Below are positions 19,491 through 54,069 of a stretch of DNA of 64,000 nucleotides, piece after piece; position 1 is the first letter of the stretch, and each line of letters begins with the position of its first letter. Origin of the DNA: a virus; the IMG/VR virus record IMGVR_UViG_3300017778_004456, positions 1 to 64,000 of that record; one strand, 5' to 3'. Under the pieces are notes generated by a model. That model searched no databases. It saw only the letters and a program-made list of their open reading frames with translations, and was not told where the DNA came from. Made by a program: the position numbers and the translations under genes.

Positions 19491-21179
19491 ATGTCTCTGT
19501 TCAAGCTAGAACGTCAGGGCGCAAACGCCTTCCGGGTGATTGCCGAGAAGACGAGTCCGAGACTTTTTGACACAATCAATCAGTTCCCCGGTCGTAAGCA
19601 GCGGAGCCCCGCTGGGCCGCTGTACGAACTAACGATTGCCAACTTACGCCACTTCACTGAGCGCCATCCCGACCTGCTCATGTGCAGCGCCCTGCACGCT
19701 TGGTATGAGGAAGCGCATGGCGTTAAAATGGTCACACGGTTGGACGTAACTCCAGACACGTTCCGCTACCGGATGCCGCCCATGATTCACCAGAAGACGG
19801 CGATGGACCGCTTCTGGAAGTCAGGGACCTCATACTGGGGACTCTTCTTCGAGATGGGAACCGGCAAGACAAAGACTACGATTGACCTTGCTGGAATCAA
19901 GTTCCTGACGGGACAGATCGACACGATGCTTGTCATCGCGCCGAAGGGCGTCCATACTCAGTGGTCGGTCAAGCAAATCCCGGAGCACATGAGCCCCGAT
20001 GTCAACTTCTTCCAGTACCTCTGGAGACGTTCGGGCTCCAAGTCTGAGGTTGAGCTTCGGGAAGATATCATCAAGAAGGACGAGGACGCACTTCGCATCG
20101 TCTGTATGAACATCGACGCTTTGAACAGTAGCGCCGGATTTGACTTCGCCATGCGCTTCGTGAAGTCTGGTCGCTGCATGATGGTGGTCGACGAATCCAT
20201 TACGATCAAGAACTATCGCGCTCAGCGTACGAAGAATACTGTGGAACTCGGAGCCGAGTGTGTCGCTCGCACTATACTCAATGGCGCGCCGATCTCTAAC
20301 GGTCCCCAGGACATATTCGGTCAGATGCTCTTCCTGTCGGCCAGCATCCTTGGAAGAAGCTTCATTCAGTTCCAGCATCAGTTCCTGGTGATGGGCGGCT
20401 TCCAAGGGCGTCAGGTTGTGGGTCACAAGAACCTCGAGCATCTGCAGCAGATCATTGACAAGCATTGCTTCCGCGTATTGTCGTCAGACTGTATCGATCT
20501 TCCCGAGCAGAACTTCATGGATCGATTCGTCGAGATGACCGACGAACAGGATGAGTGGTATCGCAAGGTCAAGGAAGATATTCTTGTCGAGATGAGTAAT
20601 GGAGACGTCCTGGATACCTCCCAGGTGACCACGAGGTTCATCAAGCTTCAGCAGGTTTGCTGGGGATACATTAGGGATGCTGAGGGTGTCCCAACGCGCA
20701 TCGCGAACAACCGCGTGGACGCTGTGATAGACATTCTGGACGAGACCCGTGTCGAAGGGAACCGACGCACACCGACACTCGTCTTTTGTCGATTCCGTGA
20801 GGAGATCGCTATGATCGCGGAGCGGCTGCGGGATGAGAAGATATCCTTCAGGGAGTTTCACGGTGGCGTCTCCGGTACAGAGCGAGATCAAGCCTGTACG
20901 GACTTCCAGAACGGTGAGTTCGACGTCTTCATCATCAACTCGGCGGGCTACCGAGGTCTCGATCTCTGGCGCGCACGTCAGGTGATCTGGTATTCACTGA
21001 CATTCTCGTTGGATGAATACTCTCAGGCAAATAAGAGGCCTCACAGGGTTGGCCAGACTTACCCGGTCCGCTATATTCACCTTATCTCACCGGGCACCCT
21101 GGACGTTCGTCTTGTCAAGGCTCTGCACCGGAAGGCAACCGTAGCTGAGATGCTACTTGACATCAGGGAGTCACTATGA
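19491..21179 (+). CDS. SNF2-like SF2 helicase
   Basis: EMGTGKT Walker A, DES Walker B, GLDL and QANKRPHRVGQ motif VI; AAGGA RBS before ATG 19491. Confidence 0.9.
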   Translation: MSLFKLERQGANAFRVIAEKTSPRLFDTINQFPGRKQRSPAGPLYELTIANLRHFTERHPDLLMCSALHAWYEEAHGVKMVTRLDVTPDTFRYRMPPMIHQKTAMDRFWKSGTSYWGLFFEMGTGKTKTTIDLAGIKFLTGQIDTMLVIAPKGVHTQWSVKQIPEHMSPDVNFFQYLWRRSGSKSEVELREDIIKKDEDALRIVCMNIDALNSSAGFDFAMRFVKSGRCMMVVDESITIKNYRAQRTKNTVELGAECVARTILNGAPISNGPQDIFGQMLFLSASILGRSFIQFQHQFLVMGGFQGRQVVGHKNLEHLQQIIDKHCFRVLSSDCIDLPEQNFMDRFVEMTDEQDEWYRKVKEDILVEMSNGDVLDTSQVTTRFIKLQQVCWGYIRDAEGVPTRIANNRVDAVIDILDETRVEGNRRTPTLVFCRFREEIAMIAERLRDEKISFREFHGGVSGTERDQACTDFQNGEFDVFIINSAGYRGLDLWRARQVIWYSLTFSLDEYSQANKRPHRVGQTYPVRYIHLISPGTLDVRLVKALHRKATVAEMLLDIRESL

Positions 21180-21784
21180 CGGAAGATACCTTTGGTGAAC
21201 AGATCATGTTCACTGACGATGACATCCAGAAGCCAGACCTTCTGGCAACTCGCGAGACGGGACTCCGCTGCGGAGAACTGATCGACGAGATGTTCAAGCT
21301 GAACTCGGAGGTGAACACTCTCGAGAAGACTGTCGAGGACAAGAAGGCCCGGATCAAGGAAATCTCAGAAGAGATGCTTCCTGGTCTGATGGCTTCGATG
21401 AACGTCGCCGAGTGGAAGTCCCTCTCGACCGGCGCGAAGGTGAAGCTGGAGGGTGTCTGCCGCGCCAGCCTGAAGAAGAAATCGCCCGACGACGTTGCTC
21501 TTCACGAGAACTTGGTCAGCTATCTGGCCGAGCAGGGTTACGACGCTATCGCCAAGCGGGAAGTCGCGGTCTACTACTCCGCAGACAAGGCTGCCGAGGC
21601 GAAGCTGCTTCACGCAGAGTTGGAGTCCCGCCAAGTTCCGGTCTCGATGGCGATCGACATCCACCACTCGACTCTGTCTGCGACCCTTCGGGAGATCAGC
21701 AAGCAGGGCGGCGTCCTTCCGGACCCTGAGAAGACCGGTATCAATCTCTACCAAGCGACTGTCGCCAAGATCACGCTAAAGTGA
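21176..21784 (+). CDS. conserved phage hypothetical protein (replication module)
   Basis: 202 aa with LPGLMA...IHHSTLSA pattern, between helicase and SSB-like gene. Confidence 0.7.
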   Translation: MTEDTFGEQIMFTDDDIQKPDLLATRETGLRCGELIDEMFKLNSEVNTLEKTVEDKKARIKEISEEMLPGLMASMNVAEWKSLSTGAKVKLEGVCRASLKKKSPDDVALHENLVSYLAEQGYDAIAKREVAVYYSADKAAEAKLLHAELESRQVPVSMAIDIHHSTLSATLREISKQGGVLPDPEKTGINLYQATVAKITLK

Positions 21785-21856
21785 GTTGCGTGACGCCGTG
21801 CCTGCTTTATTACTAGGCGGGCCGCACTGGCAATAACGAAATCGGAGTAACGACTA

Positions 21857-22699
21857 ATGTCTGAAGATACAAAGAACGATCTGACTGTCACCAAGTTCGG
21901 CTCGCAGGACGTGGCGATCTTTAACGACGAGGACTTCGGCGCTGGCTTCCAGGAGATGGACAGCTCGCACACTATTGTCCCGATCCTGAAGATCATCCAG
22001 GCCCTCTCGCCGCAGCTCCAGAAGTCCAAACCGCAGTACGTCAAGGAAGCCAAGTCCGGCATGTTCGTCATCTCGTCAACCAACGAGGTTCTCGACGGCG
22101 AAGAAGTCGGCGCGACGGTGATCCCGGTCTACTTCTCGACCAAGTTCATCGAGTGGCGTCCGCGTGCGGCTGGCGGCGGCATCGCTGCTCGCTACAAGTC
22201 TCAAGCTGAGTTCGACCGGATTCCCGGCACGATGAAGCGCGAGGACAAGGCGGGTTGGATCACCAAGGACGGCAACGAGATCATCGAGTACTATGATTTC
22301 TTCGCCTTCCTTCTGAAGGACGGTGTGTTCTCGCCGATCCTTCTCTCCTTCAAGGGCAGCGCAATCCGGACCGCCAAGGTCTGGAACTCGCAGCTCAAAG
22401 GTCAGACCCAGAATGTCGGCGGCAAGCTCCGTCAGCTTCCCATGTTCTCCTACAGCTGGACTCTCCGCACTCAGGAGCAATCCAACTCGCAGGGATCGTG
22501 GCACGGTCTGGTGATGTCTCGCGACAAATACATCGGCGAGATTGAGAACGGTGCTGCCATCGTTGCTGAGGCCCGTCTGCTTGTGGCGAACATCGTCGCC
22601 GGCACGGTTCGCGGCGCCGAGGAAAGCGAGGAGGACGGCGACGTTGCTGGTCCTGCTGGCGGCAAAGTCGGTGCGACTGGTAGCGACACCCTGAGCTAA
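21857..22699 (+). CDS. putative ssDNA-binding/annealing protein
   Basis: PILKIIQALSPQ, FIEWRPR...GG, NSQGSW, acidic C-terminal tail, replication-module context. Confidence 0.6.
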   Translation: MSEDTKNDLTVTKFGSQDVAIFNDEDFGAGFQEMDSSHTIVPILKIIQALSPQLQKSKPQYVKEAKSGMFVISSTNEVLDGEEVGATVIPVYFSTKFIEWRPRAAGGGIAARYKSQAEFDRIPGTMKREDKAGWITKDGNEIIEYYDFFAFLLKDGVFSPILLSFKGSAIRTAKVWNSQLKGQTQNVGGKLRQLPMFSYSWTLRTQEQSNSQGSWHGLVMSRDKYIGEIENGAAIVAEARLLVANIVAGTVRGAEESEEDGDVAGPAGGKVGATGSDTLS

Positions 22700-22710
22700 G
22701 AACGATAGAT

Positions 22711-22748
22711 AAGTTCGCCCTTGCGTGCGAGGGCGAACTTGTTACTAT
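22711..22748 (+). promoter_or_regulatory. inverted repeat overlapping promoter
   Basis: AAGTTCGCCCT...AGGGCGAACTT (22711-22740) overlaps TTGCGT-N16-TACTAT. Confidence 0.6.
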
Positions 22749-22778
22749 GTGTGCATGGTCAGCAAAAAGGAGTATCCA

Positions 22779-23414
22779 ATGACCGACGTGACTGAAACCA
22801 CCGCCGACGAAGCCAAGCCCCAGAAGCTCGAGAAAGCCAATCAGAAGTTCTACCTTGGGACCGCCGCCTGCCGCAAGGGCAAGATCTACGACGCTCTCCG
22901 CGCTTTTGTCTTCGCGAACCCCGGCATGACGCGCGCCGAACTCATCGCCTCCGCCGACTTGAAGGTCGCTATGGGCGGAACGCGCAACCCAGACGCTCGC
23001 AAGCAGGCGATCGTCAATGATGCCTACGTCAACGGCTATCTCTCCGGCGGACTGCGTCGCAACTTCCTCACCGACAAGGCTGACGAAGCTGCTACGGAGA
23101 TCACGTTCATCGAGACCGGCAAGGCTGTCTCCGACAAGGTCGGCGCCGGCGAACTGACGAAATCCGGCCGCGAGTTCCTGAACATGGTCGCCGGCATCCT
23201 GACGGAAGCAGGCGTCGCTGCTGATCACCCGGTCAGCGCCGAGACGCTCGAGAAGAAGCTGGGCCGTCCTCTGGCTCTGTCGGCTCGCACGATCTCGAAG
23301 CTGGAAGCTGACGGCTACCTCGACGTCGAGCGTGCCAAGGACGACAAGGGCGAAACGACCAAGAAGATCCTCTCGGTCAGCATCCTGAAATCGGCGCCAG
23401 TCGACGGCGAGTAA
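22779..23414 (+). CDS. putative winged-helix DNA-binding protein
   Basis: AAGGAG RBS; own promoter and terminator; C-terminal TLEKKLGRPLALSARTISKLEADGYLDVER resembles wHTH. Confidence 0.6.
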   Translation: MTDVTETTADEAKPQKLEKANQKFYLGTAACRKGKIYDALRAFVFANPGMTRAELIASADLKVAMGGTRNPDARKQAIVNDAYVNGYLSGGLRRNFLTDKADEAATEITFIETGKAVSDKVGAGELTKSGREFLNMVAGILTEAGVAADHPVSAETLEKKLGRPLALSARTISKLEADGYLDVERAKDDKGETTKKILSVSILKSAPVDGE

Positions 23415-23440: not shown

Positions 23441-23466
23441 ACGGGCGACCTTCGGGTCGCCCGTTT
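23441..23466 (+). terminator. intrinsic terminator with C(UUCG)G loop
   Basis: ACGGGCGACC-TTCG-GGTCGCCCGT-TT. Confidence 0.75.
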
Positions 23467-23480
23467 GCAGGACGACTTCA

Positions 23481-24356
23481 ATGGAAATTGTACCGGATCA
23501 GTTTGATCGCCTCGTGGCGTATATGCACGAGCGCGAACGAATTAGGATAAGGAAAGAGGCTGGACAGCCCTTCCCGTGGTCTCAGGACATAATCTTTCAA
23601 TCCGCCCGCTTCACGAACATCCGTAGATCTGATGATAAGACCACGAGATGGCTTAAGAACAACTGGATCACGCCGAACAAGGGCAAGGATCCTCTCGCAG
23701 AGTTTCGGAACGTAGCGATCTTCCGCTGGGTTGGAACCATCGAGTTCGCCCAGACTTACGGATGGCAACCTCACTGGAGCAAGTCTCGACTGATCGCTGT
23801 CATCGAGGGTATGATGGCTCAGAAGCGAAGACCGTTCACATCTGCGTATGTCATCTCTAACTTCGGCCTGAAGGGCTCGAAGGCGGCAGTAGTCGGAAAC
23901 GTGATCGACGAGCTGAACAACAAGCTGGAAGCTCTGATCGTACACGTCGACGAGCACCAGACATGGGAGTCAGCCGATACGTTCCTGCGTGACAATGTCT
24001 CAGGATTCGGCGGTACGGGCTTCATGTCCAAGGAAGTTCTAACAGATGCTATGGAGACCTCGTTCTTCGGACCTGTGACTGATCTGTTCACCTGGAGTCC
24101 TTTCGGACCCGGCGCTCGCCGTGGTCTGGTGAGAGCGTTCGGTCAGCCTCTGGAGAAGAAGATAAACGCAGATGTTGCACTGAGGCTGGGAAGGGCGTTA
24201 TATTCTGCCTTAAGTCACGGCGTACTAGATGCTGATATGCCTCAGCCCTACAAAGATTTCACTCTTCACGATCTTCAGTTCGTGATGTGTGAGTTTGACA
24301 AGTACGAACGTATCCGCCTGGGACAAGGCCGCTCGAAAAGGGGTTACTCGCAATGA
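23481..24356 (+). CDS. 5-hydroxymethyl-dU DNA kinase-like protein (aGPT-Pplase1 family)
   Basis: ERERIRIRKEAG.PFPWSQD.IFQ.ARFTNIRR.DDKTTRW N-terminus, GPGARRGL, CEFDKYER. Confidence 0.85.
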   Translation: MEIVPDQFDRLVAYMHERERIRIRKEAGQPFPWSQDIIFQSARFTNIRRSDDKTTRWLKNNWITPNKGKDPLAEFRNVAIFRWVGTIEFAQTYGWQPHWSKSRLIAVIEGMMAQKRRPFTSAYVISNFGLKGSKAAVVGNVIDELNNKLEALIVHVDEHQTWESADTFLRDNVSGFGGTGFMSKEVLTDAMETSFFGPVTDLFTWSPFGPGARRGLVRAFGQPLEKKINADVALRLGRALYSALSHGVLDADMPQPYKDFTLHDLQFVMCEFDKYERIRLGQGRSKRGYSQ

Positions 24357-25207
24357 ACGACATCACGGTCTTCATTCCGACCAAGGGTCGACTGGACAAG
24401 CAGTACACCTACGACATCGTCAAAGCGACCGGGAATCACTTGCCGATTCTGGTCTGCCCTCCGGAAGAGGTTCCGGAGCACGAGAAGCGTGGTCGTCGAG
24501 CCGTTGGCTTCGCTCACGCGTACCTGAGTCAGTCGATCGACCACATCATTCACTTCCTGGCACACACGGATCGTGTGATCATCATGGATGACGACCTGAG
24601 GTTCTCCAGGCGTATCAGCAAGGACGACTGGAAGCTTCGGATGGCAGACCCAACCGATATTCGGGACATGATCGATCAGATCGCCGACCTGCTGACTGAA
24701 CATCCTATGGTGGGTGTGTCTGCTCGCCAGAACAACAACAATCTCACCGCCGATCACCATACGATAGCGATGCGTCAGTCCCAAGTTCATGGGATCTACG
24801 TTCCGTTCTTCAAGGAGCATGGGATCCATCCAGACAACGTCATTCTGAAGAGCGATTTCTTCATGACGCTGAATGTCCTGACACGAGGTAAGTCGAACGC
24901 CGTCCTGACGCAGTTCACCGTTGATCAGGCTGGCGGTTCCAACGCGCCGGGTGGAGTCAGCATCTATCGCTCGGTCGATTCGATGAACAAGGCGGCGATC
25001 CTTCTCCAGAACCTCTTCCCACAGTTCGTGAAACTCCGGGAGAAAACTACGAAGTGGAAGGGTCTCGAGACCTCCTTCATGGATGTGACTATATTCTGGA
25101 AGAAGGCTCTGGAGGCGGGACAACGCGGAGGTTGCCCGATGCCTGCCGAACCTGTATATTCCGATGAACAGCCAGCCCCACAGCAAGACCGGAGAGCCGC
25201 CATATGA
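24353..25207 (+). CDS. GT-A fold glycosyltransferase (DNA base glycosyltransferase-like)
   Basis: VFIPTKGR start, IIMDDDL DxD motif, SNAPGGVS; overlaps both neighbouring genes. Confidence 0.75.
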   Translation: MNDITVFIPTKGRLDKQYTYDIVKATGNHLPILVCPPEEVPEHEKRGRRAVGFAHAYLSQSIDHIIHFLAHTDRVIIMDDDLRFSRRISKDDWKLRMADPTDIRDMIDQIADLLTEHPMVGVSARQNNNNLTADHHTIAMRQSQVHGIYVPFFKEHGIHPDNVILKSDFFMTLNVLTRGKSNAVLTQFTVDQAGGSNAPGGVSIYRSVDSMNKAAILLQNLFPQFVKLREKTTKWKGLETSFMDVTIFWKKALEAGQRGGCPMPAEPVYSDEQPAPQQDRRAAI

Positions 25208-26262
25208 CGAGAGTGATTTCTTCAGAGAAAGGCGGTATCGGTACTATCGTCGCTACTGATGTCGATTCTGCAATCGTTTCAGCAGTGAAGCTTCTGAAGG
25301 AGGAAGGTCTCGAGATCGCCAGCCGCGCGGGTCCGACTTTGGAGTATCCGACCCCAGTCGTTACGATCTATAAGAATCCTTCCCGCAAGGTCAGCTTCAT
25401 GGAGGCACGGGATGCAAACCCATTCTTCCACCTGTTCGAGTCGCTCTGGATGCTGGGCGGCGGAGACGATCTCCCTTCACTCCTGATCTTCAACTCAAAG
25501 TTTGGACAGTTCTCAGATGACGGCAAGACTATTCGGGGTTCAGCATACGGTCGTCGCTGGCGAACATGGTTCGGTCACGATCAGCTCACGGACGCTGTCC
25601 AGAAGCTCAAGAACACGCCTGGAGACCGCCGAGTGGTTCTTCAGATGTGGGATGCTTTCTCTGATCCTGTGGTGCAGTCGAAAGATGTCCCCTGCAACAC
25701 CGTCTGCTACTTCCGATGCCGAGATGGTAAGACATTGGACCTCACAGTCTCCAACAGAAGCAACGATGCTATCTATGGAGCCCTCGGAAGCAACGTCGTA
25801 CACTTCAGTCTTCTGCTTGAATACGTGGCTTCGTCAGCAGGTCTTGAAGTCGGCACGTACTATCAATTCTCTAACTCCTACCACGGATACGTGGAGAATC
25901 CTATCTTCGCCAAACTTCTCTCTGGCTCTACAGCTCCTGCGACGTATGAGAAGATGGGTGTCCAAGCCTTCCCGCTGAACTCTGAGGACGGCGCGATCAA
26001 CGAGGACATCATGCTTCTTATGAAGTTCGTCAGAGAAGTTGCGGAGTCTCCTGACAAGAATTACATCACCCTGATGACTTCTCTGAATGAGCGGGTCTGG
26101 AACACCGAGTTCTTCCGCAAGGTGGTTGGCCCGATGATGATCGCCTACTTCTCCTGGAAGACCAGCGGCGGCATCAAGTGGGCGCAGAAGAACTTCAACA
26201 TGACGATTGACTGGCACAATGCCTCGATGCGATGGCTCGAACGGAGAATGAAAAATGGCTGA
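25204..26262 (+). CDS. thymidylate synthase homologue, probable dUMP hydroxymethylase
   Basis: RDANPFFHLFESLWML, catalytic DVPCN, NRSNDAIYGALGSNVVHFS (Asn at the dUMP-specificity position), SYHGY. Confidence 0.85.
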   Translation: MTRVISSEKGGIGTIVATDVDSAIVSAVKLLKEEGLEIASRAGPTLEYPTPVVTIYKNPSRKVSFMEARDANPFFHLFESLWMLGGGDDLPSLLIFNSKFGQFSDDGKTIRGSAYGRRWRTWFGHDQLTDAVQKLKNTPGDRRVVLQMWDAFSDPVVQSKDVPCNTVCYFRCRDGKTLDLTVSNRSNDAIYGALGSNVVHFSLLLEYVASSAGLEVGTYYQFSNSYHGYVENPIFAKLLSGSTAPATYEKMGVQAFPLNSEDGAINEDIMLLMKFVREVAESPDKNYITLMTSLNERVWNTEFFRKVVGPMMIAYFSWKTSGGIKWAQKNFNMTIDWHNASMRWLERRMKNG

Positions 26263-26866
26263 TGGCTCGCCGGACTACGGCATTCCGCTGACAGCCTCTG
26301 AGCTCTGGCTCAGCGGCAAGGTGATTCGCTACCATGCTTCCCCCACGATTAAGCATCAGACCACGGGCGAACACGCATGGGGCGTCGCCATCATGTGCAA
26401 GATTCTGTTCCCGGAGAAGTTCGCACAGCTCGTGGAATATCTCTTAACGCACGACGCGCCGGAGCTGGTCCTGGGAGACTGGCCTTATCCCGCCAAGAAG
26501 TTGATGAACGTCTACGAGCGTGAGGCTGAATGCGAAGCGGCGCTGATGTCTCCGTGGCAGAAGCCTCCGGGCTTCATGTCCGAGGAGGACGCGATCATCT
26601 TCAAGGTCTGCGACATCGTCGAGCTGCTGATGCAGACGGCATACGAGATTGGCCTCGGAAACAATCACGTCGGCTATATTCATCGCAACGGTGAGCGTGT
26701 CCTGATGTCCCTTCTGATCAAATTGGAGGAGACGTCGAAGGGTGCTTATCGCGCGACGGCGGTCCACGCTAAGGTGAAGGATGTTGTCAGCCGGATCATA
26801 AAAGATCAGGTTGAGCGCTATCTGCCTTCCCAGCCTAAGATGCAAGTTACCGAACAGGAGTCCTAA
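26255..26866 (+). CDS. HD-domain 5'-deoxynucleotidase-like protein
   Basis: VIRYH...QTTGEHAW...LTHDAPELVLGD.P.PAK...KVCDIVE (YfbR-like HD motifs). Confidence 0.85.
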   Translation: MADGSPDYGIPLTASELWLSGKVIRYHASPTIKHQTTGEHAWGVAIMCKILFPEKFAQLVEYLLTHDAPELVLGDWPYPAKKLMNVYEREAECEAALMSPWQKPPGFMSEEDAIIFKVCDIVELLMQTAYEIGLGNNHVGYIHRNGERVLMSLLIKLEETSKGAYRATAVHAKVKDVVSRIIKDQVERYLPSQPKMQVTEQES

Positions 26867-27270
26867 TGTCCGCGAACGCAATCCAAATTGGCGGCTCTCA
26901 CTACAAGGGCGAGTATCAGCACTGGGACTGGGTGTCGGACTGCAGCATTCACTATCTGATGGGCTGTGCAACGAAGTACGTGGTCAGGTGGCGCAAGAAG
27001 AACGGTCTCCAAGACCTCGAGAAGGCGAAGCACTATCTGATGAAGATGGAGGAGCTGATCGTCGAGGGTCGCTATCGTCCGACCGGGACCGCTCTCGAGC
27101 TTCGTCAGCGCCGAGCGCTTACCGAGATGTTCATTCGGGACAACTGCGTCGATCCTACCGAAGCTCAGTTCATCTACGTCTGCGCGCTCTGGGATGATCC
27201 TGAGGAACTCGCCGTAGCTGCTCAGGCTATCGATAGTCTGATCATGGTGGCTTCGGCAGACAAATTCTGA
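26866..27270 (+). CDS. DUF3310 (SaV-like) putative nucleotide kinase
   Basis: QIGGSHYK...GCATKYVVRWRKKNGLQDLEKAKHYL. Confidence 0.85.
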   Translation: MSANAIQIGGSHYKGEYQHWDWVSDCSIHYLMGCATKYVVRWRKKNGLQDLEKAKHYLMKMEELIVEGRYRPTGTALELRQRRALTEMFIRDNCVDPTEAQFIYVCALWDDPEELAVAAQAIDSLIMVASADKF

Positions 27271-27309
27271 CGCCGGGGTCACCACATAAAGAAACTGCGT
27301 TGAGCAGCG

Positions 27310-27368
27310 CGCCGGGGTAAGTTACAGCTTACCCCGGCGTTGACAATGCGTAACCTCGCACATACAGG
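27310..27368 (+). terminator. hairpin abutting probable polymerase-operon promoter
   Basis: CGCCGGGGTAAG/CTTACCCCGGCG 12 bp stem directly followed by TTGACA at 27340. Confidence 0.6.
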
Positions 27369-27374
27369 ATTTAC

Positions 27375-29312
27375 ATGTCCGATCTTATCTCCAGGCTGAT
27401 GGGCTGGTTCGCAGGGACCGTTACCGCGATCGACTTGGAGACCTACGACCCTCTCCTTGAGGAGCGTGGTCCGGGTTGGGCATTCGAGAACGCTGGTCAC
27501 ATCATTGGTGTCAGTCTCGCCTCCGAGAAGAAGGCGGTCTACTTGCCGATTCGGCACAAGTGCTGGGAGGCAACTCCCGGTGACTACCCGCACCAGAATG
27601 ATCTCGACGACAAGCCCTTCACTGAGAACTATGATCCCGAAGAGGTCATGGAGTTCCTTCGCCGCCTGATGGTTGAGAGCGAGGAGCCTGTGATTTTCGC
27701 CAACGCGAACTACGATCTGGGCTGGCTCGAGACTGAGGGCAAGGTCTGGGAGCATCGCCGGCGCGTCGAAGATGTTCAGATGCAGGCTCCGCTGCTGGAC
27801 GAACACTCCAGAAGCTTCGGCCTGGATATGCTGGGCCTCAAGTATTCCGAGAAGGGTCTTACGAAGCTGGGCGGCGATCTTGTCTCGCTGGGCAAGTCCC
27901 GCGGATACAGGTCCAAGGGCGCGGTGATGAAGTCTCTTGCCGAGTTGCCGATTGGTGTGGTCGCAGCCTACGCGGTTCGGGATGCCGAGGTTACTCTCGA
28001 CGTCTGGTATACTCTGACTAAGATGATCGAGCAGCAGAACCTACAGCGCGTCTACAGCGAGCTGGAGATGCCTCTGCTTCCGTATCTGCGACAGGCTCGA
28101 CGCCGTGGGATTCGGGTCGACATGGCTCGCGCTGAGGAGGTTGCCCATCAGTTCCTGAAGCTTGAGGAAGAGGCAACCGCAAAGCTCAAGCACGAGACCG
28201 GGATCGACCTCACCGGAGACCTCTGGAAAGCCGAGAAGGTCGCCAAGGTTCTGGATTACGCAGGGATCCCATACCCTCTGACTCCCAAGACCAAGAAACC
28301 TTCCATCGACAAGGACTTCCTGAACGACATCGACAACCCGATCACCGACATGATTCTTCAGGCGCGCAAGTTCGAGAGAGCTCGCAGCACCTTCGTCGAG
28401 GGCTTCGTGATGAACGGCTCGATCAACGGCCGGATTCACTGTCAGCTTAACTCCCTGAAGTCTGACGATGGTGGTACTATCTCTGGACGCTTCTCCTGCT
28501 CCGACCCCAACCTTCAGCAGATCCCTGCACGCGACCCTGAGATTGGTCCGCTTGTCCGGAGCTGTTTCCTGGGCGACGAGGAATGCGACTGGGTGTCCAT
28601 GGACTACTCTCAGCAGGAACCGCGTTGGATGGTGGAGATGGCTCTTCGCTGCGGGTTCACATCTTCGCTGCCGTTCGTGGAAGCTTATCAGAACAACCCC
28701 AAGACAGACTTCCACCAGCTTAACGCTGACATCGCCGGCATCAAACGGAAGGAGGCCAAGGAGATTGGTCTGGGTCTCGCGTATGCGATGGGTGGCGGCA
28801 AACTCGCCCGGAAGCTGGGTCTGGAAATTGAACTCAAGACTTTCCGTGATCGGCGTACTGGCGAGATGGTCGAGTACGAGGCGGCGGGTAAGGAAGCCCA
28901 AGCTATCATTGACAAGTTTCACCGGGGCTCGCCATACATCAACGACCTCGACAAGATGTGCCGCGGTCAGGTTCGCTCGAAGGGTTATCTGCGGACACCG
29001 CTCGGTCGACGATTCAGGTTCCCGATTCTACCTACCGGCGAGCAGTGGAAACCTCACAAGGCGATGAACGCTCTTATCCAAGGTTCTGCCGCTGACGAGA
29101 CAAAGACCGCCATGCTGGCCCTTTACAGAGCAGGCATCCCGCCTATACTTAGTGTTCACGACGAGGTAGCACTGACGCACACTCGAGATCGTGAAGTTAT
29201 CCGGGCGGCTGCGAACATTATGATCAACGCTGTTCCGAAAACTGTGCCGTCCATGGTCGACATTGAAGTCGGCAGGTCGTGGGGCGAATGTGTCGCATTG
29301 GAGACAGAGTGA
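27375..29312 (+). CDS. family A DNA polymerase with 3'-5' exonuclease
   Basis: AIDLET exo I, TISGRFSCSDPNLQQIP, DYSQQEPR motif A, RKEAKEIGLGLAY motif B, VHDE motif C. Confidence 0.95.
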   Translation: MSDLISRLMGWFAGTVTAIDLETYDPLLEERGPGWAFENAGHIIGVSLASEKKAVYLPIRHKCWEATPGDYPHQNDLDDKPFTENYDPEEVMEFLRRLMVESEEPVIFANANYDLGWLETEGKVWEHRRRVEDVQMQAPLLDEHSRSFGLDMLGLKYSEKGLTKLGGDLVSLGKSRGYRSKGAVMKSLAELPIGVVAAYAVRDAEVTLDVWYTLTKMIEQQNLQRVYSELEMPLLPYLRQARRRGIRVDMARAEEVAHQFLKLEEEATAKLKHETGIDLTGDLWKAEKVAKVLDYAGIPYPLTPKTKKPSIDKDFLNDIDNPITDMILQARKFERARSTFVEGFVMNGSINGRIHCQLNSLKSDDGGTISGRFSCSDPNLQQIPARDPEIGPLVRSCFLGDEECDWVSMDYSQQEPRWMVEMALRCGFTSSLPFVEAYQNNPKTDFHQLNADIAGIKRKEAKEIGLGLAYAMGGGKLARKLGLEIELKTFRDRRTGEMVEYEAAGKEAQAIIDKFHRGSPYINDLDKMCRGQVRSKGYLRTPLGRRFRFPILPTGEQWKPHKAMNALIQGSAADETKTAMLALYRAGIPPILSVHDEVALTHTRDREVIRAAANIMINAVPKTVPSMVDIEVGRSWGECVALETE

Positions 29313-29782
29313 GATATTTCGGAATTAAGTGGGACGCAAGATTCCTACAGCTCGCACAGATTGTTTCGACGTGGTCCAAAGACCCAAGCACGAAAGTCGG
29401 CGCCGTTCTGGTGCGTCCTGACAAGACCATTGCGGCGACCGGTTACAACGGATTCCCAATGGGCTGTTCGGACTCAGACGCGATGTATGAGGATCGTGAC
29501 GAGAAGCTGGGCCGTGTGGTTCACGCTGAACTCAACTGCTGCCTCGCGGCTAACGAGAACTGTACCGGATACACAATCTACATTTATCCGCCGTCTGCGT
29601 TCAAGACTGCGACGTGTGATCGCTGCGCTGCGGCGATCATTCAACGTAAGATTCACAGAGTGGTTTCCTACTACGACATCAACGCAGTCTTCAAGGAATC
29701 CTGGAGACCCTCGTTCGATCGGTCTCTCAGGATGTACCAGGAAGCCGGTGTCCTTGTGGATGCCATTCCGCTGCTGCCCTAA
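29309..29782 (+). CDS. dCMP deaminase
   Basis: WSKDPSTKVGAV, GYNGFP, HAELN, TCDRC zinc motif; GTG overlaps the polymerase stop. Confidence 0.92.
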   Translation: MRYFGIKWDARFLQLAQIVSTWSKDPSTKVGAVLVRPDKTIAATGYNGFPMGCSDSDAMYEDRDEKLGRVVHAELNCCLAANENCTGYTIYIYPPSAFKTATCDRCAAAIIQRKIHRVVSYYDINAVFKESWRPSFDRSLRMYQEAGVLVDAIPLLP

Positions 29783-29807
29783 CCTGCACCCCGCAAAGGA
29801 TACGCCC

Positions 29808-30755
29808 GTGCCAGCTTACGCTGCTTCGCCTGTAAAGAATACGCGCCAGCCCCAAGGGGCGCACCTGCCCCCGTGCGTCCTTATTGTAGACGCAAACAAT
29901 ACGGCGAAAGCCGCCTATCACGTTTCCGGAGAACTGGTCACAGACGCCGGTCACGGAGTCGGCATCACCTATACGATGCTCAACTCACTGAAGACTCTGC
30001 TGTATCATTTCCCGACGGCAACTCAGGTCATTTACTGCTGGGACTCGCGTCCTATCTGGCGGTCGGCTCTCTACCCGGCCTACAAGATGAACCGCGCGTC
30101 ACACCAGCCCGGTCACGTGAAGGATCCTGAGGACAACTGGGAGGAACAGAAGCAGCTCTTTCTGAGATTCCTGGAAGTGCTTCCGGTGACACAGGTTCGC
30201 GGTGAACTTCTGGAGGCCGACGACATCGCCTACTGGCTGTCTCGTAAGGAGCAGCTTCCGGAAGGTCACGTTGCAGTTCTGGTCTCGAACGACAAGGACT
30301 GGTTTCAGCTTATCGGTGACCATCAGGTCCTGTGGCGTCCCTCGTCAGTTATTCCGAAGAAGTTCCTGGATCTCCACAACTACGACCGCGATACTGACTA
30401 TCGCACGCCAGCCGAGATCATACAAGTCAAGGCTATTGCCGGCGACTCTAAGGACAACGTTCACGGCGCCGATGGTATAGGTGAAGGCTCGGTGCTGAAA
30501 TATCTGAACCATCAGCCTATGCAAGAGTTCCGGGAGAAGCGTATCCTTGACTGGATCGACACCGAGCACTACAGGCTCAACCTTAGACTTCTGGACCTCG
30601 ATCAGACACCGAAGGAACTCTTCCACAACATCGAGGTGAATAGAACGCTTTGGGATGAGCGGGCCTTCATGATGCTCTGCCGCGAGCTGGAGTTCTACAC
30701 CATCATGGAACGCTGGGGAGAATTTACTGGCGCGTTTTTGCGTCTAGCACGCTAG
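29808..30755 (+). CDS. 5'-3' exonuclease/flap endonuclease (T4 RNase H-like)
   Basis: LIVDAN, YPAYK.NR, EADDIA, SNDKD, AGDSKDNV.GA.GIG motifs. Confidence 0.9.
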   Translation: MPAYAASPVKNTRQPQGAHLPPCVLIVDANNTAKAAYHVSGELVTDAGHGVGITYTMLNSLKTLLYHFPTATQVIYCWDSRPIWRSALYPAYKMNRASHQPGHVKDPEDNWEEQKQLFLRFLEVLPVTQVRGELLEADDIAYWLSRKEQLPEGHVAVLVSNDKDWFQLIGDHQVLWRPSSVIPKKFLDLHNYDRDTDYRTPAEIIQVKAIAGDSKDNVHGADGIGEGSVLKYLNHQPMQEFREKRILDWIDTEHYRLNLRLLDLDQTPKELFHNIEVNRTLWDERAFMMLCRELEFYTIMERWGEFTGAFLRLAR

Positions 30756-33576: not shown

Positions 33577-34072
33577 TCCTCAGTTCGCGCAGGCTTTTGT
33601 CTATCACTACATGACCTGTAGTGATGGGACGAAGGCTATGGCAAGAGCGTGGGTCGACACGACCGGTAGCCTTCTGGATGATGAGCGCGCCGAGAACATG
33701 GCGGCGGAGTACATGCTCACGCCAGCTTTCCGGAATACACTAGCCGACGCTCGCTCCAGCATGAAGCGTCCGTACCAAGCTCGTTTGGAAGAACACATCG
33801 AGCAACTGGCGCTGATTCGCGACGCAGCCCTAGGAGCTGAGAAGTTCTCGGCAGCAGTTTCCGCAGAGATCGCTCGCGGCAAGGTTCAGCGATTCTACGA
33901 CCCGCCCAAGGATGACAGCGATCCCCTCAAGGACGGCGACCTAAAGAAGCTCGGTGATGAAGACCTTCGGAAGAAGGCTTCTGAGATCATCGCAAGGCGC
34001 AAGCTGAGCGCAGAATCTGTGAGTATGCCAAGTGTTGAAGGAGCTTTCAGCGGAAGACCTACTGACGAGTGA
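33467..34072 (+). CDS. terminase small subunit (start uncertain)
   Basis: RDAALGAEKFSAAVSAEIARGK pattern, directly upstream of the large terminase. Confidence 0.65.
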   Translation: MTRKDSPVPTTPLPTSLPVTRSSNDSEPYPDTLVLRSPQFAQAFVYHYMTCSDGTKAMARAWVDTTGSLLDDERAENMAAEYMLTPAFRNTLADARSSMKRPYQARLEEHIEQLALIRDAALGAEKFSAAVSAEIARGKVQRFYDPPKDDSDPLKDGDLKKLGDEDLRKKASEIIARRKLSAESVSMPSVEGAFSGRPTDE

Positions 34073-35489
34073 GGAAGAAACCGAGGAGGAGATTCTTCGG
34101 GAGTATGTCGCACGTCAAGAAGGTCGAGAGTCCCTCGCGGGATACACCCGGTACGTCCTGGGTCTGGAGCCGGCTAAGCATCATCTACTATTCTGCTCAG
34201 CCCTGGATCGTGTCATCAGCGGCGAGTCTCGGCGCCTGATCATCTCAGCTCCGCCGGGTAGCGCGAAATCAACCTACGCCAGCGTTGCTCTTCCCGCATA
34301 CGCTCTTGCGAAGCTGCCCAAGGGTGAACGATTCGTATCGGCTTCGTACTCCAAGGAACTTGCTCTGGAGCAGGGTCGCAAGGTCCGCAATCTTATTGAC
34401 TCGGAGGAGCACAGCATACTCTTTCCTGACAGCATTGTCAGCGCGAACGATCGATCCGCAAACCGTTTCTCTACTACGAAGGGAACAGCCTACTACTCCA
34501 CAGGCGTCGGCGGTTCTATCACCGGAAAGCGCGCGACGATTTTGTCAATGGACGACTTGATCAAGGGACGCCAGCAGGCGGACTCCAAAGGTGAGCGGGA
34601 GAAGGTCTGGAGCTGGTACCTCTCGGACGCCTTCACGCGACTCTTCCCACATGGCCGGATTGTGTTCATCATGACACGCTGGCACGAGGAAGACCCCATT
34701 GGTAAGATCTTGGATCAGGCGCAGAAGTCCGGAGAACAGTGGGAGTACATTCGGATCGAGGCGCTCTGTGACAACCCGGCGGAAGATCCGTTGGGCCGCA
34801 AGCTGGGAGAACCCTACTGGCCCGAATGGGAATCCAAAGAGTCGCTGCTCTCCAAGAAGGAAGGTATCGGTCCTCGTGAGTGGGCTTGTCTGTACCAGCA
34901 ACGTCCCTCACCGCAGGAGGGAACTCAGGTCCTACGGAGTTGGTTTAAGAAGTTCAAGCCCAACGATCTGGAAGGCGTACCGCTGATCTTCTACGATAGC
35001 TACGACACCGCATCCAAAATTGAGCAACGTAACGACCCGACCGTGCGTCTCCGCTTCGCTGTGGATCCTACCGGCAACGTCTACCTGTGGGAAATCGAAA
35101 AGAAGAAGGTCGAGTTTACAGATCTGGTGAAGCTGTTCTCCGCAGCCGCTGTGAGGAGAACTCGCGGTCAGACAATCTCCTCCAGCCTGATCGAGGACAA
35201 GGGTACGGGAACGTCGCTCATCCAGAGTGTCAAGAAGTCACACAATGTGATTCCCTGTACCCCGGAGTCAGAGGGTGACAAAGCCTTCCGATTCGAGGCA
35301 GCTTCGGACTTCTTCGAGGCAGGTCGCTTCTACTACAACTCCGAAGACCCTCTCGCCGCAGACTACATCGAGGAACTTGTGACGTTCCCAGGTGGAAAGC
35401 ACGACGACATGGTGGATGCGACCTCGCAGTTCATCTCCTGGGTCAAGAAGAAAGCTGGTCGCCGCGGTTCCGGCAAACTTCGTCACTAA
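34032..35489 (+). CDS. terL: terminase large subunit
   Basis: SAPPGSAKS Walker A, MDDLIK, MTRWHEED, LYQQRP, YDTA, IEDK, FPGGKHDDMVDA. Confidence 0.95.
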   Translation: MLKELSAEDLLTSEEETEEEILREYVARQEGRESLAGYTRYVLGLEPAKHHLLFCSALDRVISGESRRLIISAPPGSAKSTYASVALPAYALAKLPKGERFVSASYSKELALEQGRKVRNLIDSEEHSILFPDSIVSANDRSANRFSTTKGTAYYSTGVGGSITGKRATILSMDDLIKGRQQADSKGEREKVWSWYLSDAFTRLFPHGRIVFIMTRWHEEDPIGKILDQAQKSGEQWEYIRIEALCDNPAEDPLGRKLGEPYWPEWESKESLLSKKEGIGPREWACLYQQRPSPQEGTQVLRSWFKKFKPNDLEGVPLIFYDSYDTASKIEQRNDPTVRLRFAVDPTGNVYLWEIEKKKVEFTDLVKLFSAAAVRRTRGQTISSSLIEDKGTGTSLIQSVKKSHNVIPCTPESEGDKAFRFEAASDFFEAGRFYYNSEDPLAADYIEELVTFPGGKHDDMVDATSQFISWVKKKAGRRGSGKLRH

Positions 35490-51950: not shown

Positions 51951-52394
51951 TTACGCTCTACGTCGATAGTCAGGCCCAAGCCCGTCAGTCCCTGGGGGGA
52001 CGGGGACGACTGGCAAGGTCGACTTGTCTTCGTAAGGAACAGTGTCCCGGGAAGCGGTATCCCAGAACAAGTGGTCCCAACCTTCACTTCGCTTAGGACG
52101 CGAAGTGAACTTGTGGTTCTCATTGGCAACAAGGATCACCTCGTAGTCGAGATCCTCGGTGCAGGCTCGAATATCCTCCACGACCTTGCGGCGCTCAGAA
52201 GCTGTATCAGCCTCCACGCACCACATGAAGGATTCACTCTTCAACATGAGAACAAACGGATCGAGATCGCGCTTGGCGTACTTCCAGTCGATCACACGCT
52301 TGGGCGTGTATCCAACGGGACATACTCGTGCGACGATATCGCGGACCGGCTCGAAGCCGATAGTAACGATGACGTATGGACGTTCGTGGTTCAC
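51951..52394 (-). CDS. degenerate P-loop kinase-like protein
   Basis: GGAGG RBS; aligns by eye with 53561..53983 and 52700..53284 but has no Walker A. Confidence 0.55.
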   Translation of the reverse strand: MNHERPYVIVTIGFEPVRDIVARVCPVGYTPKRVIDWKYAKRDLDPFVLMLKSESFMWCVEADTASERRKVVEDIRACTEDLDYEVILVANENHKFTSRPKRSEGWDHLFWDTASRDTVPYEDKSTLPVVPVPPGTDGLGPDYRRRA

Positions 52395-52493
52395 TTGAGA
52401 CCTCCTACTGCTACCACAAAAACAAGTTAACACAGCATTACGTCTTTGGGTGGGTCGTATGCTCAAATTAACCATCTTTTAGCAGTTGGACGA

Positions 52494-52712
52494 TCAAGCC
52501 TGTGGATCGCTGATCTCGACGGTGATCAAGACGAACTTGCCTCTGTACTTGAAGAGAGCCTTCGCCCGCTTGGAGTTCGATTCGGGAACGGTGATGTCTC
52601 CGACCTCGGCGTCAGGAGTTCGATCGCCGATTCCTCCGAGTGCCTGTTGGAGAAGCTGACGCGGTAGCCTCGGGTCTCGCATGGGGAGAAGGTTGTTGGT
52701 CATAGGTTCCAT
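52494..52712 (-). CDS. hypothetical protein
   Basis: Operon ORF. Confidence 0.55.
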   Translation of the reverse strand: MEPMTNNLLPMRDPRLPRQLLQQALGGIGDRTPDAEVGDITVPESNSKRAKALFKYRGKFVLITVEISDPQA

Positions 52713-53284
52713 CCGCTCTGGGTAGGAGTGTGGTCACGTAGAGTCTTGTGGAATTCTGGTAGCGGGATAAACGTCCGTTCGGAGAAGCCCTCCCAGACAG
52801 CGGGAAGCTCGAACTCGTCCACCATCGATTCCCAAACCTCTCGCTCGACTCCGTGACGATTCCGCTCGAAGACCTTATTTCGCTGAAACTTCGTCACCGG
52901 CGGAAAGAAGGCGACAGCCTCAACTCGGAAACCATACTCGTGAAGGAGTCTGATCATCGGTTCTCGGATACCGGTGTTGACGTTCACCTGATCCCAGACG
53001 AAATCCGTGCGATTCTCCAGTAGTACGTCGAGTTCGGCGCCTACGAGCATCTTAGCGTAGAAGTTGAGCTTCTCATCGTTAGTGACTTCTGTGAAGGAGG
53101 TGTTCATCCTTCTTGCTATGTCCTCGCAGATAGCATCGAGGCTGAGAACCTTGACGTTCGACGGGACGTGATGCTTGATCCAGGTGCTCTTTCCAGCACC
53201 CGGCACGCCGATCATCATCGTACATGTCGGCGGGAACATGAATCGCTTGAGTTTAGTCATAGTAGCCGAGATCGTTTTTGTCAT
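52700..53284 (-). CDS. P-loop kinase (AAA_33/polynucleotide kinase-like)
   Basis: MIGVPGAGKSTW, LSLD, VWDQVN...R, EGF. Confidence 0.85.
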   Translation of the reverse strand: MTKTISATMTKLKRFMFPPTCTMMIGVPGAGKSTWIKHHVPSNVKVLSLDAICEDIARRMNTSFTEVTNDEKLNFYAKMLVGAELDVLLENRTDFVWDQVNVNTGIREPMIRLLHEYGFRVEAVAFFPPVTKFQRNKVFERNRHGVEREVWESMVDEFELPAVWEGFSERTFIPLPEFHKTLRDHTPTQSGWNL

Positions 53285-53573
53285 GGGGTCTCCAGGGTCC
53301 GATCATGTAGAGGTGCCACACCTTGCTTCCGATCTGAGTGGAGAGCATGTGAGAAGCCTCGGGCTCGTGAATTGGGAAGTGACTTCCGTAGATCTTGAAC
53401 TTGCCGCGCATGGGATTCATGGTACTGAGTGACTCCACATGCACGAAGAAGCTCGCATGTCCGTACTGGTTTGCCTGAATCTCGAAGTAGACAATCTTCG
53501 ATGGATCGCAGACGACGATCTCGTGCGGAGACTCCTCCAGCTCGAATCTTCCAACGGTCTTCATATCAGCCAT
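53253..53573 (-). CDS. hypothetical protein
   Basis: IYGSHFPI...LSTQIGSKVWHLY pattern. Confidence 0.6.
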   Translation of the reverse strand: MADMKTVGRFELEESPHEIVVCDPSKIVYFEIQANQYGHASFFVHVESLSTMNPMRGKFKIYGSHFPIHEPEASHMLSTQIGSKVWHLYMIGPWRPHDKNDLGYYD

Positions 53574-53983
53574 CCCTTGTATGGTGAGATCTTACCAGTT
53601 CGGTCGTACATCATCCAGTTCGTGGCCTCGGGCTCAGGCACAATCCAGAGCACATCAGCGAAACGATCGCCATGAGGCTTCTGTCGCCATCTATCAAAGA
53701 GCTCAGGTACCTTCGGACAGATAGCAAACACCTGATAGTCAGTACCATACTTCCGCACGAACTCCGCCGCCTTCTCTCGATGAGTAACAGCCTTTCCCGG
53801 AACAAACCATATGAAAGACGTTCCGGCTCCCAGGACGTCGGGCACGTACAGTTTCCGGTTATCGAACTCATCGTCAACGACGGTGTTGAGACTCCAGCCA
53901 GTTGGCACGAATCGAGCGAGAGCGTCGCGTCTCGGTCGGTAACCGTGGACCAGAAGGACGACCTTCGGTGGTTGCTCAATCAT
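53561..53983 (-). CDS. degenerate P-loop kinase-like protein
   Basis: GGAGG RBS; paralogue of 51951..52394. Confidence 0.55.
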   Translation of the reverse strand: MIEQPPKVVLLVHGYRPRRDALARFVPTGWSLNTVVDDEFDNRKLYVPDVLGAGTSFIWFVPGKAVTHREKAAEFVRKYGTDYQVFAICPKVPELFDRWRQKPHGDRFADVLWIVPEPEATNWMMYDRTGKISPYKGWLI

Positions 53984-54020
53984 GCGATACCTCCATAAGT
54001 ATGTGCGATTTGTACCATCT

Positions 54021-54069
54021 ACGGTACACCTAGGAAGCCTCCGGAACAAGCACGTATTGCTCGTTCCGG
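54021..54069 (-). promoter_or_regulatory. promoter overlapping terminator hairpin
   Basis: TTGTTC-N17-TACCGT (54049-54021); CCGGAAC...GTTCCGG stem covers the -35. Confidence 0.55.

Follow-up and report, generated by a model that had tools for sequence, protein, structure and literature searches.

A predicted 5-hydroxymethyluracil glycosylation cluster without a recognised 5-hmdU DNA kinase in an uncultured M6/PhiJL001-like phage

The thymidine hypermodification routes that have been solved biochemically, those of phages M6, PaMx11, ViI, PhiW-14 and SP10, all use a DNA kinase together with an amino-acid or amine transferase. The DNA of M6 is made via 5-hydroxymethyl-2'-deoxyuridine (5-hmdU) according to Lee et al. 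(2018, PMC5889632; 2021, PMC8989533), and the experimentally shown 5-hmdU DNA kinase is the P-loop protein M6 gp54 or PaMx11 gp49 (Lee et al. 2021, PMC8989533). Here we report on a gene module at positions 23481-29782 of the virus record IMGVR_UViG_3300017778_004456 (75,995 bp), bases 1-64000 of which form the window, that is, the whole 64,000-nucleotide stretch of DNA that was analysed. The backbone of the module has the same gene order as in M6 and PaMx11, namely a PF18723 gene (M6 gp55, PaMx11 gp50), a thymidylate synthase (TS) homologue, an HD protein, a DUF3310 protein, a family A DNA polymerase (PolA) and a dCMP deaminase, and it shares with them the premise of a 5-hmdU precursor. The difference is that M6 and PaMx11 have a PF18748 kinase, a PF18724 transferase and tailoring enzymes of the pyridoxal phosphate (PLP)/radical SAM or flavin adenine dinucleotide/acetyltransferase type, whereas the present record has none of these and carries a GT-A glycosyltransferase instead. 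We put the probability at roughly 0.6 that the product is 5-hmdU DNA carrying an O-linked sugar, resembling base J and formed by direct glycosylation.

In kinetoplastids, base J is produced by the JBP1/2 hydroxylase and the JGT glucosyltransferase. The likeness lies in the predicted product, a sugar O-linked to 5-hydroxymethyluracil (hmU) in DNA, and in the GT-A family, which is connected to JGT through the structural link drawn by Pyle et al. (bioRxiv 10.1101/2023.12.21.572611). The two systems differ in that hmU formation is predicted here to precede replication and to be the work of a TS-family enzyme, with no match to the dioxygenase profile Tet_JBP PF12851 at E<=1 in the record (a profile run without a positive control), and in that thymine would be replaced genome-wide, as against about 1% of sites. 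The phage pathways for 5-hydroxymethylcytosine (5hmC), those of the T-even phages and of the GT-A and GT-B enzymes associated with TET/5mYOX (Burke 2021; Pyle 2023/2024), likewise place a sugar on a hydroxymethylpyrimidine after replication, and their GT-A enzymes show the same motif pattern and a TarP-like fold; the acceptor predicted here is hmU, and a PF18723 partner is not mentioned in the passages of those papers that were consulted.

A cultured counterpart is PhiJL001 (Keylargovirus), a phage of Alphaproteobacteria that encodes PF18723 (gp19), TAGT (gp22) and TS (gp24) proteins followed by HD, DUF3310, PolA and dCMP deaminase, and that also lacks the P-loop 5-hmdU DNA kinase (PF18748). 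It differs in sequence, with protein identities of 27-40%, and in the presence of Nmad5 (gp23), which is absent from the present record. A nucleotide-level search of phage records with the cluster returned short matches of 60-180 bp only and no close cultured relative.

The core of the module is a plus-strand block at 23481-27270 of five successively overlapping genes, as read directly from the sequence, with ATGA overlaps at 24353 and at 25204, an 8-nt overlap at 26255 and a TAATG junction at 26866. The genes are as follows.

23481..24356, plus strand: PF18723 protein P0002, 291 aa (Pfam E 2.2e-30)
24353..25207, plus strand: GT-A glycosyltransferase P0003, TAGT/JGT-like, 284 aa (PF20691, phrog_842)
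25204..26262, plus strand: thymidylate-synthase-family enzyme P0004, 352 aa (PF00303, phrog_5131)
26255..26866, plus strand: HD-domain phosphohydrolase, 203 aa (HD_3)
26866..27270, plus strand: DUF3310 protein, 134 aa (PF11753, phrog_5839)
27375..29312, plus strand: PolA with a 3'-5' exonuclease domain (Pfam, phrog_17)
29279..29782, plus strand: dCMP deaminase (PF00383, phrog_174)

A first-pass annotation, made from the letters alone, had named the coupled glycosyltransferase, TS homologue, HD and DUF3310 genes and the PolA and dCMP deaminase genes after them; Pfam and PHROG matches and the gene overlaps confirm these identities. The best explanation of the block together with PolA and the dCMP deaminase is a nucleotide and DNA-modification module of an M6/PhiJL001-like siphophage.

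The glycosyltransferase P0003 scored 33.5 bits against the TAGT profile PF20691 (cut-off 27.5) and matched phrog_842, 'beta-glucosyl-HMC-alpha-glucosyltransferase', with an E value of 1.1e-31. Relatives in the same gene slot score up to 94 bits with PF20691, and PhiJL001 gp22, to which P0003 is 27% identical, scores 181 bits. Residues R13, D79-D81, D168, G200-G201 and R206 are invariant in 18 sequences (P0003 and 17 same-slot relatives), and D168 is followed by Phe in P0003, which fits the pattern R...DDD...(E/x)D(Y/F). The AlphaFold model of P0003 (pLDDT 88.3) has the GT-A fold that the first-pass annotation had assigned to it, with TarP and TarS as the top Foldseek matches in the PDB (E ~1e-5). 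As described by Pyle et al. (bioRxiv 10.1101/2023.12.21.572611), an R...DDD...EDY/F pattern and a top PDB match to TarP are features of phage GT-A enzymes acting as 5hmC-DNA glycosyltransferases, and these enzymes are linked structurally to the base J glucosyltransferase JGT. From its motifs and its modelled fold, P0003 is predicted to be a sugar:DNA transferase acting on 5-hmdU. A tblastn search with P0003 against phage records matched five of them: two of Brevibacterium phage LuckyBarnes, PhiJL001, a Manatee Spring metagenomic Caudoviricetes and Stenotrophomonas phage DLP_6.

Related viral loci were collected by alignment of P0002 and 19 homologues, which gave 52 loci with a relative of the PF18723 protein; same-strand open reading frames (ORFs) were clustered per locus and Pfam was run on the cluster representatives. 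Their common backbone order is PF18723, a variable slot, TS, HD, DUF3310 and PolA. Slot contents were counted over the 51 loci in which the PF18723 gene was called by the ORF picker: the slot holds a GT-A glycosyltransferase (TAGT) in 22, a GT-B glycosyltransferase (Glycos_transf_1, ~430 aa) in 19, a GT4-like gene in one, GT-A plus GT4 in one and other content in four, while in the last four it is truncated or without TS. Locus L040 also has a GT-A gene, and in all a glycosyltransferase stands between the PF18723 and TS genes in 44/52 loci. Further TAGT matches near the PF18723 gene emerged from the Pfam search, adjacent to it in L026, at the contig end in L031 and ~4.5 kb away in L035. Beside either type of glycosyltransferase the slot may hold additional genes, for an NAD epimerase/dehydratase, an NTP transferase, a GT4-like protein, an FkbM methyltransferase or a radical SAM/SPASM protein, and these point to varied tailored sugars across the phages; because such sugar-tailoring genes occupy the slot of relatives, we take the sugar to stay in the product. 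Slot extras occur in L010, L013, L030, L054, L056, L057, L060 and others.

These data bear on a different reading of the glycosyltransferase, in which the DNA would contain plain 5-hmdU or partly thymine and P0003 would act off DNA, on a host surface polymer or a phage protein, or at few sites. TarP and TarS, the closest structures solved, are teichoic acid glycosyltransferases, the TAGT score of 33.5 bits is modest, and PhiJL001 DNA is reported to be cut normally by restriction enzymes, through a secondary citation in Kulikov et al. (PMC4276943). The last is the sole wet-lab datum on the gene set; it argues against dense bulky modification and is compatible with partial or site-limited modification. 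Against an off-DNA role stand the translational coupling of the glycosyltransferase gene between two genes for DNA-base enzymes, the occupation of the slot by a glycosyltransferase of either fold in most of the related loci, and a family and motifs that are those of demonstrated 5hmC-DNA glycosyltransferases and of JGT. We consider this reading unlikely.

The TS homologue P0004 decides which pyrimidine is the predicted acceptor. It matches Thymidylat_synt PF00303 (E 3.1e-18) and phrog_5131 (E 9.6e-94), is 38% identical to M6 gp58 and 40% to PhiJL001 gp24, and has a catalytic Cys164 and a uracil-type Asn197. HMMER alignments bear out the earlier recognition of Asn197 as a dUMP-type residue: it is matched by Asn in thymidylate synthase 6auj and by Asp in the CMP hydroxymethylase MilA (5b6d). 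The best PDB sequence match of P0004 is MilA (1.4e-23), with thymidylate synthases next, and its score stays far under the cut-offs of all NCBIfam thymidylate-synthase equivalogs (72 bits vs 174.55 in one case). From homology, P0004 is probably a dUMP 5-hydroxymethylase, and because of Asn197 the acceptor is predicted to be hmU and not hmC.

On the alternative that P0004 is a plain thymidylate synthase or hydroxymethylates dCMP, any modified base would be glycosyl-5hmC, as in the T-even phages. The MilA match would suit a cytosine-nucleotide enzyme, and phrog_842 takes its name from the T6 5hmC-pathway enzyme. This reading is nevertheless very unlikely: at the specificity position P0004 has the Asn of thymidylate synthases and not the Asp of MilA, the closest phage homologues come from the 5-hmdU phages M6 and PhiJL001, the equivalog scores speak against a plain synthase, and a dCMP deaminase is encoded nearby.

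The remaining nucleotide genes agree with the M6 backbone. The HD protein (26255-26866) matches HD_3 (E 3.4e-6), is YfbR-like, belongs with phrog_6047 and phrog_7076 ('dATP triphosphohydrolase'), is 28% identical to M6 gp59 and shows an H...HD motif in its translation; it may clear competing dTTP/dUTP or dephosphorylate nucleotides. The DUF3310 protein (PF11753 E 1e-8, phrog_5839 E 3.6e-32) is 36% identical to M6 gp61 and is a conserved backbone gene. PolA matches DNA_pol_A (E 3.6e-47), DNA_pol_A_exo1 and phrog_17 (E 2.6e-111), and the dCMP deaminase matches dCMP_cyt_deam_1 PF00383 (E 5.6e-16) and phrog_174 (E 1.7e-36). Pyle et al. (bioRxiv 10.1101/2023.12.21.572611) tie dCMP deaminase to ThyS-type pathways.

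The activating and substituting enzymes of the solved routes were sought in the whole 75,995-bp record. PF18748 (HMUDK_HMUD1), the P-loop 5-hmdU DNA kinase profile that M6 gp54 matches, gave no match at E<=1 (M6 control 1.1e-19), and tblastn with M6 gp54 gave none better than E 0.5. PF18724 (ADDT/AADT, aGPT-Pplase clade 2) gave no match at E<=1 (M6 control 2.3e-48), and neither radical SAM PF04055 nor PALP-type PLP PF00291 was found, with positive M6 controls. The earlier statement that the window holds no amino-acid transferase, PLP or radical SAM gene thus extends to the whole record, and the profile search for aGPT-Pplase2 that had been proposed with it reveals no transferase in the rest of the record. 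What the same annotation took over from the known phages, activation by a DNA kinase, has to be given up, since PF18748 is absent and gene 1, as described below, is homologous to the in vitro dispensable M6 gp55. In the relatives the picture is similar: among 50 of the 52 records (the 4-kb fragments L019 and L058 were left out), PF18748 was over the cut-off in none, with one weak match, and PF18724 was found in none, while TAGT was found at E<=0.01 in 25, including 6 of the 16 records that are at least 90% complete.

One P-loop kinase gene, the only one in the record, lies far from the block.

52700..53284, minus strand: P-loop AAA_33 kinase, 194 aa, judged outside the module (AAA_33 69.8 bits)

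It could be supposed to replace the 5-hmdU DNA kinase, in which case the modification would be linked through a phosphate or derived from one, as in the sugar-phosphate idea of the first-pass annotation. In favour of this, the gene is intact and encodes a Walker A motif, and known 5-hmdU DNA kinases do match AAA_33 weakly (M6 gp54 with E 5.2e-4; PaMx11 gp49 and the Epa43 homologue with 25-27 bits). The protein, however, has no match to PF18748 at E<=0.05 and no pairwise similarity to M6 gp54 or PaMx11 gp49; it weakly matches polynucleotide kinase families, and in cultured phages its relatives carry polynucleotide kinase annotations, frequently with an RNA ligase alongside. Its gene is 25 kb away on the opposite strand among early genes, and AAA_33 is above the cut-off in 0/50 related records. 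Being polynucleotide-kinase-like and not conserved in relatives, it is unlikely to be a DNA kinase, and a phosphate-based modification by this route seems to us most improbable. The kinase gene is flanked in the minus-strand region 51951-54049 by ORFs 51951-52475 and 53561-54049, neither with a Walker A motif, which are similar to each other (phmmer E ~2e-11) and barely like the kinase.

Direct glycosylation of 5-hmdU, the reading we favour, would proceed in the following steps. Going by family homology, the dCMP deaminase would supply dUMP, which the TS-family enzyme (Cys164, Asn197) would convert to 5-hmdUMP; the HD hydrolase would help to exclude dTTP/dUTP from the pool, and PolA would incorporate 5-hmdU in place of thymidine. 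After replication the TAGT/JGT-like GT-A enzyme would move a sugar from a host nucleoside diphosphate (NDP)-sugar directly onto the hydroxymethyl group, giving a 5-(glycosyloxymethyl)-dU similar to base J. No phosphate activation is proposed because the record is without a P-loop 5-hmdU DNA kinase and an amino-acid:DNA transferase. The sugar-bearing thymidine first suggested is the best-supported product, given the TAGT/JGT-like family and the glycosyltransferases of the related loci; of its two proposed forms, a sugar-phosphate on hmU lacks a kinase on which it could rest.

In M6 and PaMx11 the kinase/transferase module stands upstream of the PF18723 gene in the same backbone, and for this reason PF18723 is a backbone gene of the lineage, the variable part being either kinase plus transferase or glycosyltransferase. 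P0002 matches PF18723 with 106.4 bits (cut-off 25) over profile positions 4-277 of 281 and matches no other Pfam family; it is 27% identical to M6 gp55 and 28% to PhiJL001 gp19. A homologue search with P0002 found 325 proteins, with PF18723 in 120/120 among the matches listed. The family corresponds to aGPT-Pplase clade 1; its Pfam name is 'HMUDK_hel', and one JGI source labels a homologue 'alpha-glutamyl/putrescinyl thymine pyrophosphorylase clade 1'. Gene 1 is thus a helical aGPT-Pplase clade-1 domain and not a kinase: there is no P-loop, and the homologue is M6 gp55 and not gp54. Its earlier description as an aGPT-Pplase1/5-hmdU DNA kinase-like protein was correct in the first half and mistaken in the second.

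The model of P0002 (pLDDT 88.8) has a helical, DNA-glycosylase-like fold of the kind seen in aGPT-Pplase clade 2. Its best structural match among 48,161 PDB representatives in VIA-align is 8z2m_A (PaMx11 gp46, PUGT; Z 10.2, rmsd 4.1 over 217 residues), followed by QNG1 (Z 9.8), Ogg (9.8), AGOG (9.1), Mag1 (8.8) and NTHL1 (8.3), with EndoIII also present; Z values at such levels are, by the tool's own caveat, only moderate for helical proteins. Foldseek with the same model found nothing in the PDB at E<=0.001, and a PDB profile search by sequence with the clade-1 protein returned chance P450 matches only. Residues C270, E271 and K274 are invariant in 55/55 aligned clade-1 sequences, including those of M6, PaMx11 and PhiJL001, and the invariant Cys lies in the motif E-x-E-H-T-L-C in PaMx11 gp50 and M6 gp55 and E-V-E-T-I-L-C in PUGT, the correspondence of C270 with PUGT Cys247 being one of by-eye motif and structural ranges and not of residue-level superposition. 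PUGT is a 5-PmdU glycinyltransferase for which Cys247 is the proposed nucleophile (PMC11472151), and Ala mutants of the conserved Cys or Glu inactivate M6 gp51 and ViI gp247 (PMC8989533). The residue four before the Cys, which in PUGT is the metal ligand Glu243, is Gln266 in P0002 and Gln in 52/55 sequences, with Glu only in M6, PaMx11 and PhiJL001. The comparison of a clade-1 protein with M6 gp51 by hhalign was not significant (probability 1.3%), local hhalign of the 55 clade-1 sequences with a two-sequence clade-2 alignment gave no meaningful match, and the PF18724 model matches PhiJL001 gp19 weakly (E 7.8e-4). The suggested connection of the two clades rests on the fold search and the by-eye motif.

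From the modelled fold and the invariant Cys-Glu pair we infer that the PF18723 protein takes the same C5-substituted uracil as its substrate, flipping it out. As a backbone gene that kinase-type phages have too, it probably does a job common to all 5-hmdU genomes of the lineage and not one specific to the sugar. A complex prediction for the PF18723 protein with the glycosyltransferase gave a score of 0.00, counted neither for nor against binding.

These features allow a further possibility, that the PF18723 protein writes the base itself. Cys270 would attack C6 of either 5-hmdU or glycosyl-hmdU, the neighbouring Glu would assist as an acid in the departure of the C5 substituent, and the exocyclic methylene would then take up a nucleophile, be it a small linker, the hydroxyl or amine of a sugar, or a hydride giving thymine; the glycosyltransferase would then decorate the product or supply the leaving group, and the final base would be something other than a simple hmU O-glycoside. 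PUGT as the best fold match, the Cys motif of both clades, the role of Cys and Glu in the clade-2 enzymes, the invariance of all three residues and the position of the PF18723 gene next to a glycosyltransferase in most loci are consistent with this. Opposed to it are the lack of a kinase to make a good leaving group, the replacement of the PUGT metal ligand by Gln, the non-significant profile comparison with M6 gp51, and slot genes that imply that the sugar is retained; in addition, the M6 intermediate still forms in reactions without gp55, which is dispensable in vitro (Lee et al. 2021, PMC8989533). We regard it as unlikely that the PF18723 protein is the writer. In a more specific form, PF18723 would be a Cys-dependent C5-methylene enzyme that acts on 5-hmdU DNA without prior phosphorylation and builds, with the glycosyltransferase, a thymine-sugar linkage other than that of base J, for example a sugar or linker that is joined via the exocyclic methylene and that the glycosyltransferase then extends; this we offer as a speculative and rather doubtful proposal.

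Bacterial homologues of the PF18723 protein are also present. The nearest (36-43% identity) come from nine loci, L064-L072, most of them bearing the label Alphaproteobacteria or that of one of its families; these sit in chromosomal contigs, and neither a TS nor a glycosyltransferase ORF was detected nearby. In the three of these loci that were scanned (L065, L068 and L071), a dCTP-deaminase-like gene (PF22769) and an ORF of ~181-200 aa are convergent to the PF18723 gene, and in L065 a type I restriction-modification S subunit gene is immediately upstream. The PF18723 ORFs of L069 and L070 are ~460 aa long, with an N-terminal extension of ~170 aa without a family match.

Several observations weigh against direct glycosylation as the full account, in addition to the normal digestion of PhiJL001 DNA. 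It leaves a strictly conserved PF18723 enzyme with an invariant Cys-Glu pair without a role, and the model is therefore incomplete. The assignment of hydroxymethylation rather than methylation to P0004 rests on homology. A TAGT match is missing from 10/16 near-complete relatives; the clustering, which is not a record-by-record tally, suggests that most of these carry GT-B instead. The record has no gene for NDP-sugar synthesis, and the donor must therefore come from the host. Finally, CheckV estimates the record to be 75% complete. Head, portal and scaffold genes occupy 68.5-74 kb and tail genes 0.4-17 kb, with helicases, a terminase gene, ribonucleotide reductase and a DUF5906 protein located between tail and head genes; going by this gene content the record looks nearly whole, the missing part is probably between the head and tail genes, and an extra modification gene there is unlikely.

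The surroundings of the block contain the following further features.

22725..23414, plus strand: upstream ORF, 229 aa, alternative start possible at 22779 (no Pfam/PHROG match)
23443..23462, plus strand: GC-rich hairpin with 8-bp stem and TTCG loop, then GTTTG, between the upstream ORF and the block (direct reading)
27310..27339, plus strand: GC-rich hairpin with 12-bp arms; TTGACA and then the PolA start immediately downstream (direct reading)

The two hairpins flank the five-gene block, and the one at 23443-23462 was not among the calls of a consensus terminator scan. The upstream ORF resembles a winged-helix DNA-binding protein and may be a regulator of the block; the gene at the same position in relatives L014, L046 and L047 (cluster c31) has weak MarR_2 and HTH_24 matches. 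Its membership of the module is uncertain. The idea that it might be a hidden kinase was rejected, there being no Walker A motif in its translation and no family match. Further upstream, at 21176-22699, are two genes matching cyanophage Pam3 families (gp33-like DUF7307 and gp34-like PF23977), and these genes recur at that position in the majority of related loci (clusters g202 and Pam3gp34).

Downstream, the longest ORF for a 5'-3' exonuclease (29361-30755) overlaps the dCMP deaminase gene; because its Pfam match starts only at residue 173, the true start is probably near 29,870. The large terminase (Terminase_6N/6C) at 34032-35489 stands between an RNase T-like exonuclease and ribonucleotide reductase in the replication/nucleotide-metabolism region, distant from the portal and head genes (68.5-74 kb). 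On the minus strand at 54078-55156, in the early region, two adjoining ORFs match DUF6197 (E 1.4e-8 and a weak E 1.3e-3) and perhaps arose by tandem duplication.

The gene set is common in uncultured phages, and parts of it have been within reach of earlier surveys. Pyle et al. (bioRxiv 10.1101/2023.12.21.572611) mined ThyS-associated contigs with GT-A and GT-B genes and describe ~25,000 contigs containing glycosyltransferases, many of them neighbouring ThyS. The metavirome survey of Lee et al. (PMC8989533) was seeded with the kinase and would therefore miss kinase-free clusters. A 2026 PNAS paper describes glycosyltransferases that adjoin phage T-dioxygenases, and the thymine modifications of SP-15, YerA41 and Carin5 are reported to be glycosylated on a long linker. 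Among the papers listed by our literature searches, supplementary files aside, none describes glycosylated 5-hmdU in such a phage; similar clusters may already appear in Table S4 of Pyle et al. and in the supplementary figures of Lee et al. 2021. With PhiJL001 holding the same combination of PF18723, TAGT and TS, and ThyS-associated glycosyltransferase contigs already mined, the novelty seen in this locus by the first-pass annotation was over-estimated: the cluster is a further clean member of a recurring variant.

The module suggests a widespread second route of thymidine hypermodification, in which sugars are placed on 5-hmdU without a kinase. If true, this would be a bacterial-virus counterpart of base J, with consequences for how restriction and CRISPR nucleases are resisted and for enzymatic 5hmU-labelling tools. 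The predicted base could be sought in PhiJL001, a cultured phage. The conservation of the PF18723 gene in the M6, PaMx11 and PhiJL001 clusters and in 52/52 related metagenomic loci isolates the question of its function, for Pfam labels it a kinase domain, yet it was dispensable in the published M6 reconstitution. Should the PF18723 protein prove to be the writer, dozens of uncultured phages would hold a second, kinase-independent thymine-writing chemistry, in a family that alphaproteobacterial chromosomes also carry in a different context.

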